Positions 30,496-55,916 of a stretch of DNA of 64,000 nucleotides are shown piece after piece. The notes beneath the pieces were generated by a model. The model was not told the origin of the DNA, ran no database searches, and worked only from the letters and a program-made list of their open reading frames with translations. Both the position numbers and the translations under genes were made by a program. The stretch lies in the IMG/VR virus record IMGVR_UViG_3300025889_000071, one strand, 5' to 3'. The number at the start of each line of letters is the position of its first letter. The stretch's first letter is position 1. This DNA comes from a virus. Lineage: Duplodnaviria; Caudoviricetes.

Positions 30496-30509
30496 GTATC
30501 AAATGATAC
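30496..30509. promoter_or_regulatory. NtcA-binding-site-like palindrome
   Basis: GTATCAAATGATAC = GTA-N8-TAC with extended GTATC/GATAC symmetry. Confidence 0.6.
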
Positions 30510-30522
30510 ACAACAAAAGTAC

Positions 30523-30551
30523 TTGACTAAATAAGGTATAAGGTCTATAAT
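30523..30551 (+). promoter_or_regulatory. Near-consensus sigma70 promoter for riboswitch transcript
   Basis: TTGACT (30523-28)-N17-TATAAT (30546-51); predicted TSS ~30558, 2 nt before the aptamer. Confidence 0.8.
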
Positions 30552-30559
30552 AGACCTGT

Positions 30560-30842
30560 CGTTCATCCAAGAGGCAGTCGCTGTGCACATAGCATAGAAA
30601 GACACATCTGGACGCAAGTAAGTCGCGGAACGGAGCGTTCATCCTATGATTGAGTTACTACTATTAGCTAATTTACATAGTCCTCCAAACATGACTTGTC
30701 AGCAAGTTAGAGAGGTGGCAGAAACCGTACTGGATTCTGATATGTCTCAACAAGATAAGCAAAGATTCTTATCTCGTTTGTTTGGACAGCATATGATGCT
30801 AAAGTGTCTTAAGAAATAGGACGCACACGACTGAAGGAACGG
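30560..30842 (+). ncRNA. Glutamine riboswitch (glnA-type aptamer) with greatly expanded P2 and P3
   Basis: P1 CGTTC (30560)/GAACG (30837); P2 TCC..GGA closing 41 nt; GCAAGTA junction; loop-E AGTA/GAA; P3 AGTCG (30621)/CGACT (30828); upstream of a YRG-motif peptide gene. Confidence 0.75.
30646..30819 (+). CDS. 57-aa ORF nested inside the riboswitch P3 loop
   Basis: MIELLLLANLHSPPNMTCQQVREVAETVLDSDMSQQDKQRFLSRLFGQHMMLKCLKK; GGAG at 30632-35; hydrophobic N-terminus. Confidence 0.6.
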   Translation: MIELLLLANLHSPPNMTCQQVREVAETVLDSDMSQQDKQRFLSRLFGQHMMLKCLKK

Positions 30843-30879
30843 GAGATTAAATTCACCCTAGTATTTCAGGAGAAACACA

Positions 30880-31047
30880 ATGAATACACTTCTCATGATC
30901 AAGAAGCAGATCGACAAAGCATCTGCACTTCACGACGCTCAAATTGCTCATACTGCATATCGTGGTGTTGAGTATAACGTATGTGGTCATGAACCACATG
31001 AGACTCACGGTACATTCTGCTATCGTGGTCATACTTATAACAAGTGA
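30880..31047 (+). CDS. DUF4278 / downstream-peptide-like protein (55 aa)
   Basis: MNTLLMIKKQIDKASALHDAQIAHTAYRGVEYNVCGHEPHETHGTFCYRGHTYNK, two YRGxxY motifs; AGGAG RBS. Confidence 0.8.
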   Translation: MNTLLMIKKQIDKASALHDAQIAHTAYRGVEYNVCGHEPHETHGTFCYRGHTYNK

Positions 31048-31070
31048 ATTACTTGTATTAGAATGCATAG

Positions 31071-31105
31071 GAGAGGTTGACTACCTCTCTTTTTTTGTCT
31101 ATAAT
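31071..31105 (+). terminator. Terminator whose top is a -35 box; overlapping promoter
   Basis: GAGAGGT-TGACT-ACCTCTC-T-tract; TTGACT (31077-82)-N17-TATAAT (31100-05). Confidence 0.75.
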
Positions 31106-31126: not shown

Positions 31127-31300
31127 ATGGATAGAGATAAATTAAAACTCATCATCAAAAACATGGAACTCCTTCTCGATTCTTTGAAAGCAGAAGTGCT
31201 TTCTGAACCTGAATCGTACTTACAGGGAGAATACTTAAATTATCCACAAATTACTGACTATGATGAGGTATTTGATGATGACGATGGATACCCCGATTAA
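31127..31300 (+). CDS. Conserved hypothetical protein (57 aa)
   Basis: Manually read MDRDKLKLIIKNMELLLDSLKAEVLSEPESY...DYDEVFDDDDGYPD. Confidence 0.7.
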   Translation: MDRDKLKLIIKNMELLLDSLKAEVLSEPESYLQGEYLNYPQITDYDEVFDDDDGYPD

Positions 31301-55406: not shown

Positions 55407-55478
55407 GGGAGTGTCGCATATTGGTTAATGCCCATGCCTTATAAGCGTGTGAACCGAGTTCAATTCTCGGCATTCCCA
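55407..55478 (+). tRNA. trnI: tRNA-Ile(UAU)
   Basis: Acceptor GGGAGTG/CATTCCC; anticodon stem CATGC/GCGTG, loop CTTATAA; T-arm CCGAG-TTCAATT-CTCGG; no CCA. Confidence 0.9.
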
Positions 55479-55481
55479 CTT

Positions 55482-55554
55482 GCTCCTTTAGCTCTCTGGT
55501 GAAAGCTCTCTGCTCATAACAGAAGAAAGGTCAGTTCGATCCTGACAAGGAGCA
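55482..55554 (+). tRNA. trnM: tRNA-Met(CAU), elongator or Ile2-type
   Basis: Acceptor GCTCCTT/AAGGAGC; loop CTCATAA; T-arm GTCAG-TTCGATC-CTGAC. Confidence 0.9.
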
Positions 55555-55557
55555 CTC

Positions 55558-55629
55558 GGGTGATTGGCGCAGAGGTAGCGCAGTAGATTTACATTCTATT
55601 GGTCACTGGTTCGAATCCAGTATCACCCA
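55558..55629 (+). tRNA. trnV: tRNA-Val(UAC)
   Basis: Acceptor GGGTGAT/ATCACCC; stem GTAGA/TCTAT, loop TTTACAT; T-arm CTGG-TTCGAAT-CCAG. Confidence 0.9.
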
Positions 55630-55633
55630 CCTT

Positions 55634-55916
55634 GCGAGTATGGTGGAATCGGTAGACACACCAGACTTATGAAAATTGAGCCTCATTTGAGAAATCTTAT
55701 GAGTGTAACTCCTCAAATTCGGGGAAACCTGTAAAATGGCAATCCCGAGCCAAGCATCGCAAGATGAAGGTGTAGAGACTAGACGGGGAGCACCTAAACC
55801 GAAAGGTATGGTGAAGGGATAGTCCAGACCACAAACCGTAAGGGCAAGGAAACTTGTAGTGGTAAGAAAATCTGTTGACCATTGCGGTCGTGGGAGTTCA
55901 AGTCTCCCTACTCGCA
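55634..55916 (+). tRNA. trnL: tRNA-Leu(UAA), split by group I intron (exons 55634-55668, 55867-55916)
   Basis: Joined exons give an 85-nt type II tRNA with anticodon loop CTT|AAAA, variable arm GACC..GGTC, T-loop GTTCAAGT. Confidence 0.92.
55669..55866 (+). mobile_element. Group I self-splicing intron (trnL-type, 198 nt, no ORF)
   Basis: Inserted U^AA; P1 CTT/GAG with U.G; P AAATTCGGGGAA, Q AATCCCGAGC, R GTGTAGAGACTAGACG, S GGATAGTCCA; GNRA loops in P6, P8, P9; ends in G. Confidence 0.93.

Follow-up and report, generated by a model that had tools for sequence, protein, structure and literature searches.

Type-1 glutamine riboswitches (RF01739), exemplified by that of Synechocystis gifB (PMC6212724), are compact RNAs of ~55-60 nucleotides (nt) that comprise CGUUCA, a P2 helix, an ACG(G/C)A junction, an AGUA/GAA E-loop, a P3 helix, GGAACG and a long-range pair at the linchpin position. 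The gifB switch is ON with glutamine and involves an inhibitory duplex at the ribosome-binding site, and aptamers of both glutamine classes usually control DUF4278/IF17-like genes (PMC6212724). Glutamine-II riboswitches (Downstream-peptide motif, RF01704) carry CGUUCA, P2, CGCA, GGAACGG and C...G at the linchpin positions, have no E-loop, precede short YRG peptides and place GGAACG in a 3′ hairpin loop that forms a pseudoknot with CGUUC. Tandem and 'even triple' glnA RNAs have been noted (Weinberg et al. 2010, PMC2864571), tandem copies are also credited to Ames & Breaker 2011 (via PMC10265488), and glutamine riboswitches are present in T4-like cyanophages (PMC9964418). Here we describe a leader at positions 30560-30842 of a 64,000-nt stretch (the window, meaning that whole stretch) of the virus record IMGVR_UViG_3300025889_000071 (Caudoviricetes). 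The explanation that we consider fairly probable is that this leader is a type-1 (glnA-type) glutamine riboswitch with two nested cores and a gene inside the inner P2, switching two small proteins.

The outer core has the sequence and pairing features of RF01739 and, in the window, stays below its score threshold. These features are a 5-bp P1 (CGUUC/GAACG), a P2 closed by YCC/GGR directly after CGUUCA, the junction, E-loop and GGAACG, and a P3 between AGUA and GAA (Table 1). A preliminary description of this DNA had listed the same glnA-type elements spread over 283 nt, and each is read directly from the sequence where it had been placed. That description also proposed C30615/G30842 for the linchpin, C-G replacing the canonical G-C, and these two bases do occupy the linchpin positions and could pair. 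In an alignment of 15 distinct relatives lacking an open reading frame (ORF) (alignment A1), 14 sequences have C-G at the two columns and relative L099 has G-C, a single event. P2A, the P2 of the outer core, contains an internal hairpin (CTGTGC 30581-86/GCATAG 30592-97) that RNAfold also predicts. Like the gifB switch, the leader precedes a DUF4278/IF17-type gene, and a translational ON logic via a duplex at the ribosome-binding site is proposed for it below. It differs from described type-1 members in its length (~283 nt), in a P3 'loop' that is predicted to be a second, permuted core, in a P2 that encloses a gene, in having C-G at the linchpin positions and in being phage-encoded and below the Rfam threshold.

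Searches of the window with RF01739 and RF01704 gave no match above the gathering threshold (GA). The sub-threshold RF01739 match is compact (30558-30636, 15 bits, GA 35); that of RF01704 (13.7 bits, GA 33) aligns its hairpin with non-canonical pairs, and the 3′ hairpin that distinguishes Glutamine-II is absent here. The leader otherwise has in common with Glutamine-II the CGUUCA, P2, CGCA and GGAACGG elements, C...G at the linchpin positions and a downstream YRG protein, and its inner core (described below) resembles that class in lacking an E-loop. Relatives with a short inner P2 were used as natural 'deletions' for testing the Rfam model. Among these the ORF-less L042 exceeds the RF01739 GA at 40.3 bits and is aligned by the model in the nested manner with a 46-nt insert in P3, indicating that the shortfall in the window is due to insert length and not to missing motifs. 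Our own covariance model (R1, from the 15 ORF-less relatives) returned a compact misalignment in the window (30558-30673, 16.8 bits, E 0.05), the 283-nt form being beyond its span, probably through the hit-length limit of Infernal.

Conserved motifs are duplicated within the leader, a feature little stressed in the preliminary description. CGTTCATCC occurs twice in 64 kb, at 30560 and 30636 (0.19 expected by chance), and GGACGCA-N10-GGAACGG occurs twice in the window, at 30610 and 30819 (0.00 expected), the second GGACGCA thus lying at 30819 and the proximal GGAACGG at 30627. This duplication inside the ~200-nt 'P3 loop' implies that the loop is itself structured. The 202 nt between the P3 strands AGUCG and CGACU contain a hairpin (GAACG-GAG-CGUUC), an A, a stem (TCCTAT/ATAGGA) and a second ACGCA junction. 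The preliminary description had placed an ORF in a ~200-nt P3 loop; the ORF is indeed enclosed by P3, whereas the loop is not a plain one, since it holds a second aptamer-like core with the ORF in its P2 (30642-47/30816-21). As read from these motifs, the inner core is a set of conserved glutamine-aptamer letters in circularly permuted order at the far end of P3, and P3 is predicted to be the third helix of both cores.

The comparative set comprises ~320 related cyanophage loci, >300 of them metagenomic viral contigs: 4 annotated phage loci, 120 viral contigs retrieved by the junction pattern, 80 retrieved by the downstream protein and therefore blind to the RNA, and 120 retrieved by a variant-junction pattern. 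In addition, 419 records of Synechococcus, Prochlorococcus and other cyanophages match the region, none covering 80% of the query. Leader layout is constant across loci, with a sigma-70 consensus promoter, module A, a 2-5-nt linker, module B, ~35-70 nt, a Shine-Dalgarno (SD) sequence and a small ORF. Module A runs CGUUCA, P2A, ACGCAAGUA, P3 5′ strand, GGAACGG, and module B runs CGUUCA, P2B, ACGCAAA, P3 3′ strand, (G/A)AAGGAACGG. Of the 67 protein-selected loci whose upstream region is long enough to judge, 61 have two modules by strict motif count, and most of the remaining six also have a double-module leader, with inner strands of variant sequence. No triple-module leader was found among the sampled loci, and single-module loci are rare and apparently follow rearrangement (module B alone in L139; module A and then unrelated sequence in L347, L366 and L415).

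Covariation in these relatives supports the predicted nested two-core architecture, with the gene inside inner P2 and a competing anti-SD helix. P3 shows 22 distinct strand combinations with compensatory changes, for example AGUCA/UGACU, AAUCG/CGAUU, AAACGAC/GUUGUUU, AGCCAAC/GUUUGCU and GGACGG/CCGCCC, and L125 and L129 have a wholly different 7-bp P3 (GAGCAUA/UAUGCUC). On alignment A1, RNAalifold predicts outer P1, P2A, the inner hairpin and P2B de novo. The full nested structure pairs 96.5% of the cells of A1, with 13 pairs changed on both sides, a count reached by 0/500 shuffles and nowhere approached by slid controls. Double changes affect 5 of the 8 P3 pairs in A1 and all five closing pairs of P2A in ORF-less relatives, and outer P1 changes in compensation to CGTTT/AAACG in L325, L333, L364, L374 and L387; overall, compensatory changes are found in five helices. 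The earlier proposal of a split aptamer, with P1 and P3 pairing across ~200-280 nt, is thereby borne out by the relatives.

With CGUUC as both 5′ P1 strands and GAACG as both 3′ strands, the window by itself is compatible with nested and tandem P1 pairing alike. In an abundant class of relatives with the proximal 3′ strand CAACG, the second 5′ strand is CGUUG in 75/78 distinct sequences, a pairing that spans about ten different loop sequences, and the outer strands remain CGUUC and GAACG in 56. Seven of the 78 also have CGUUU as first and AAACG as last strand. All four strands of these seven are different, and only first-with-last and second-with-third pairing then gives helices made entirely of Watson-Crick pairs; a tandem arrangement would leave both P1 helices mismatched at the junction pair. 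In the window, the nested fold is also better by 5.4 kcal/mol (-88.1 against -82.7 kcal/mol for the tandem fold).

P2B is maintained around the enclosed gene. Within this 6-bp helix, start-codon AU and stop-codon UA are base-paired, and closing pairs 1-3 are complementary in 97/97 distinct ORF-bearing relatives, the 3′ side not having been imposed by the search pattern. Pair 4 is C-G in 68 of these, U-A in 23 and U-G in 5, with one mismatch. In one protein-selected class (L150, L153, L159, L161, L167 and L170), all three closing pairs are swapped (GATTATGG/CCATAATC; GAUUAUGG/CCAUAAUC; 8 bp) around a longer ORF. At 24/122 loci, P2B lacks an ORF and forms a short hairpin, and P2A holds an ORF of 61-75 amino acids (aa) instead of its hairpin in 36/122.

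The enclosed 57-codon ORF, put forward from the window alone, proves to be a conserved gene: the frame is intact in relatives, the ratio of nonsynonymous to synonymous substitution (dN/dS) is low and its cysteines are invariant. An intact frame of 49-66 codons is present in 97/98 ORF-length inserts, and insert lengths are concentrated at multiples of three. Four subfamilies give a median dN/dS of 0.19-0.30, with codon-position differences in the order 3>1>2. Two cysteines, C18 and C54 in the protein of the window, are invariant across 92 sequences (alignment A2). An AlphaFold (AF2) model has a helical hairpin after a hydrophobic N-terminal helix (predicted local distance difference test score, 80.6) and found no match in the PDB (best E 2.4). 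No Pfam or PHROG family was matched by the window's nested protein, and its matches in the Atlas, viral hypothetical proteins scoring 0.80-0.82, are a lead only. A lipoprotein or signal-peptide character was considered for the hydrophobic N-terminus, which looks signal-like in one subfamily (for example, L033); the protein of the window has no basic N-region. ORFs in P2A and in P2B are paralogous (hhalign of the two families, 97%, E 4.5e-11), and duplication probably affected module and gene as a unit. The reading frame of most relatives continues across the aptamer junction to a ...WDAND* ending, with U(G/A)A from the E-loop strand as its stop codon. In the subfamily of the window, the ORF stops at UAG inside P2B, and the downstream junction is still conserved though non-coding, so the constraint acts on the RNA. 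The SD of the nested ORF (GGAG 30632-35) lies partly in the loop of the inner P1 hairpin. Nested ORFs are unannotated in GenBank, though intact and conserved, in S-T4 (L001 ~437-607) and S-CAM9 (L002 ~438-611); in Sf-FS3 (L004 466-675), the first-P2 ORF is unannotated and matches phrog_6471 at 1.4e-38.

Downstream, the leader occupies the 5′ position of a DUF4278/IF17-type gene, the protein of the window itself being below the PF14105 GA. Its positional homologues pass the DUF4278 GA in 3/7 tested, and two YRG motifs are present in 111/112. The unconstrained RNAfold minimum free energy structure of 30556-30883 (-93.3 kcal/mol) pairs CUGAAG 30831-36 with UUUCAG 30864-69, which overlaps the SD of this gene. 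Across loci, one purine-pyrimidine position of this helix covaries (A:U 30, A:C 0, G:C 47, G:U 23; Fisher 3e-11, relatedness uncorrected), and it is plausible that CUGAAG/UUUCAG is an OFF-state helix that the ligand-bound outer aptamer dissolves. A local hairpin after the aptamer in some relatives (CCUAAA/UUUAGG) was rejected as a general SD mask, as it shows no covariation and is absent from the window. We note that some relatives (L001 610-650, L002 620-660 and L004 905-945) have an extra covarying hairpin between aptamer and SD, within a conserved ACGGAUCC...AGAAGGUUAA frame, exemplified by CUGC-UACG-GCAG, CAUC-GAAA-GGUG and CAGC-GAAA-GCUG.

By analogy with gifB, glutamine would stabilize outer P1, the E-loop and the linchpin pair. 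The ligand-bound outer core would withdraw CUGAAG 30831-36 from UUUCAG 30864-69 and free the SD, which, again as in gifB, would turn on the DUF4278/IF17-like gene. The geometry of the folded state would bury the nested SD in the inner P1 hairpin and the nested AUG in inner P2. Conversely, a ribosome on the nested gene would unfold inner P2 and, at termination, cover the inner junction and the P3 3′ strand. On this geometry, nested-gene translation and sensor folding would compete for the same RNA, so that translation and sensing would exclude each other. Expression of the two small proteins is thus probably reciprocal or sequential, and host-nitrogen sensing is probably tied to their translation. 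A more elaborate scheme, to which we give only tentative credence, is one two-site cooperative glutamine sensor whose cores share P3 and exchange P1 strands. It would act as a toggle, with the nested two-cysteine protein off and the IF17-like protein on at high glutamine and the reverse at low glutamine, the ribosome on the nested gene serving as unfolding agent. Through it the phage would read host nitrogen state and retune host glutamine synthetase.

Other explanations of the leader differ in what they make of the two modules. The resemblance could be chance, or a decayed relic with no RNA function in front of two small genes with ordinary leaders, as the want of an Rfam match above threshold in the window might suggest; against 419 matching phage records, >300 metagenomic viral contigs, compensatory changes in five helices and motif counts far above chance, this has almost no probability. 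Two independent tandem riboswitches are a more serious competitor, and still a very improbable one: each module would fold alone, the nested ORF being under the control of module A (30560-30633) and the DUF4278 gene under that of module B (30636-30842), whose P2 contains the nested ORF, and AGUCG/CGACU would be incidental. Each module is indeed followed by an SD and an ORF, the best sub-threshold Rfam match in the window is compact module A, and module B by itself exceeds the RF01739 GA in L066 (36.8 bits) and exists alone in L139, so that the second module may, in some contexts, fold on its own. The original glnA alignment (glnA.sto) also treats modules as separate units; some of its metagenomic sequences carry this junction (GGAACGGA-N-CGUUCAUCC) and are aligned as side-by-side modules, with the other module, or an ORF, left in the flank (in one sequence, an enclosed ORF). 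Both modules are, however, incomplete as independent aptamers, A having neither the P3 3′ strand nor GAA and B neither AGUA nor the P3 5′ strand. The P1 and P3 covariation that links the modules counts against independence, as do the junction-pair mismatches of tandem P1 helices in the CGUUU/CAACG/CGUUG/AAACG class, where nested P1 helices are perfect, and the poorer tandem fold of the window. Published 'tandem' glnA RNAs are, to judge from these alignments, probably the same objects as this double leader. No mention of an inter-module helix, swapped P1 strands or genes inside P2 was found in the accessible glnA literature, which did not include Ames & Breaker 2011 or Ren et al. 2015.

A third alternative accepts the nested fold and assigns sensing to the outer aptamer alone; the inner core would then be a relic of module duplication serving as scaffold, its hairpin hiding the ribosome-binding site of the nested gene and its stem joining the outer halves. 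P3, outer P1 and the anti-SD helix by themselves would form a working switch, and the inner junction diverges in L125 (UGCGUUC). A mere scaffold hairpin would be expected to drift, whereas the inner arms and junction (GAAC/GUUC, CGUUCA, ACGCA) hardly vary, in contrast to the P2 and P3 stems, which drift freely with compensation. The first loop base of inner P1 is G in all ~12 loop variants, even those without an SD; variation in inner P1 is confined to one pair (C-G to G-C), which is also variable in host aptamers (the original glnA alignment has CGUUG/CAACG); and the inner junction is conserved in the window despite being non-coding. On balance we regard the scaffold explanation as rather unlikely, and the chances that the inner core also binds glutamine as evenly poised. 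Several observations tell against a glutamine riboswitch with two nested cores, and those on the inner core also favour a scaffold: an E-loop is missing from the inner core, the candidate linchpin G of that core lies within a hairpin loop of 3-5 nt that may be too tight, and A replaces the junction C in a few relatives (L086 and L302). The nested SD is absent from the GUUC and GAAC loop variants, so control by SD occlusion cannot be general, and the anti-SD helix has just 6 bp and one covarying position. Rfam gives nothing above threshold in the window, module B can stand alone as noted for L066 and L139, and the nested pairing of P1 comes from homologues and not from the window's own sequence. 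Most loci were retrieved by RNA-sequence patterns, which inflates the apparent conservation of those patterns and is partly corrected by the protein-selected set. Ligand binding and switching, finally, are deduced from sequence.

A nested two-core riboswitch would represent a new design for multi-core riboswitches and a naturally occurring, circularly permuted aptamer, and 'tandem' phage and marine glnA RNAs would appear as one nested, strand-swapped double aptamer and not as two switches in a row. The tandem glycine riboswitch has two aptamers side by side that dock through tertiary contacts. The present leader resembles it in having two homologous, putatively amino-acid-sensing cores in one leader and one folded unit, and differs in that one core lies within the other, with a common helix and swapped P1 strands. 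Group I introns, which carry homing-endonuclease ORFs in peripheral loops, offer an analogy for a structured RNA that accommodates a whole protein gene in a terminal loop with the closing stem formed across it. Theirs is a ribozyme with mobile endonuclease ORFs; here a putative sensor RNA has the start and stop codons in the closing stem, and in most relatives the last codons of the ORF are the conserved junction of the aptamer. An aptamer hairpin can apparently hold a whole gene, start and stop codons inside its closing stem, in which case ligand sensing and translation must compete on one RNA; no description of such a layout was found for any riboswitch in the accessible literature. The architecture is widespread in cyanomyoviruses and is missed by standard scans. 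With no Rfam match above threshold for the leader in the window and nested genes unannotated in several GenBank phages, the RNA and a widespread family of small two-cysteine phage proteins are under-counted.

The source is a T4-like cyanophage, and the leader belongs to a small predicted cyanomyovirus operon running from the promoter (30523-51) to a terminator at 31069 (Table 1). PhotoRC-II RNA and tRNAs are present in the 64-kb window, and a thyX-like ORF adjoins the riboswitch locus. The same promoter lies directly 5′ of the first CGTTC in most relatives, and transcription is inferred to start a few bases 5′ of 30560. GTA-N8-TAC, the form of the NtcA-like box, occurs ≤45 nt upstream of the -35 element in 53/102 distinct related leaders, most commonly at a spacing of 8 nt, compared with a chance level of ~1% by our estimate from six fixed bases. 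The operon may therefore be under host NtcA control besides riboswitch control. The NtcA-like box, the IF17-like gene and the leader together point to a phage module that reads host nitrogen status.

Table 1 Predicted features of the leader and its operon in the window
Feature	Position	Strand	Remarks
NtcA-like box GTATCAAATGATAC, GTA-N8-TAC, palindromic	30496-30509	+	13 nt 5′ of -35; context, outside the RNA
Sigma-70-type promoter, TTGACT-17-TATAAT	30523-30551	+	11/12 consensus matches
Outer P1 5′ strand, CGTTC	30560-30564	+	Pairs with 30837-30841; RNAalifold de novo in relatives
P2A (outer core)	30566-30612	+	Closing TCCA 30566-69/TGGA 30609-12 plus internal hairpin
Outer junction ACGCA 30612-16 and E-loop 5′ strand AGTA 30617-20	30612-30620	+	RF01739 consensus GaCGGAAGUA except G->C at 30615
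P3 5′ strand, AGTCG	30621-30625	+	Pairs with 30828-30832
Inner P1 hairpin, GAACG-GAG-CGTTC	30628-30640	+	RNAfold minimum free energy structure, RNAalifold; loop G30633 is the inner linchpin candidate
P2B 5′ strand, TCCTAT	30642-30647	+	Contains AT of start codon; pairs with 30816-30821
Nested gene, 57 aa	30646-30819	+	Hydrophobic N-terminus, invariant C18 and C54, predicted helical hairpin
P2B 3′ strand, ATAGGA	30816-30821	+	Contains stop codon TAG 30817-19
Inner junction ACGCACA (ACGCA 30821-25)	30821-30827	+	C30824 is the inner linchpin candidate; conserved in relatives
P3 3′ strand, CGACT	30828-30832	+	Covariation in relatives
Anti-SD segment X, CTGAAG	30831-30836	+	Part of P3, E-loop and outer P1; alternatively pairs with 30864-30869
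E-loop 3′ GAA 30833-35, G30836, outer P1 3′ GAACG 30837-41, linchpin-position G30842	30833-30842	+	GAAGGAACG (30833-41) is RF01739 consensus
Segment Z, TTTCAG 30864-69	30864-30872	+	Overlaps SD AGGAG 30868-72 of downstream gene
Regulated gene, 55-aa DUF4278/IF17-like protein, two YRG motifs	30880-31047	+	PF14105 E 5.9e-4, 20.6 bits (GA 25.3); phrog_545 1.3e-32
Intrinsic terminator closing operon	31069-31100	+	Hairpin 31069-31091

A second promoter of the same form (TTGACT-17-TATAAT, 11/12 consensus, 31077-31105) overlaps the terminator hairpin of the operon and lies upstream of a small ORF at 31127. Elsewhere in the window, a group I intron match (63.3 bits, 55659-55848) comes immediately after three tRNA genes, the whole cluster spanning 55407-55848. 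The viral contig L066 encodes a manA RNA (1697-1889, 176 bits) as well as its double-module glutamine leader. A scan of bacterial genomes for the junction returned 120 rows, nearly all of them chance matches (~70 expected by our own estimate). Five copies are genuine (L230, L237, L279, L299 and L302); they lie on contigs with phage-type promoters in metagenome-assembled genomes labelled Synechococcus, Rhodospirillaceae and others, and are probably phage contigs binned into these genomes.

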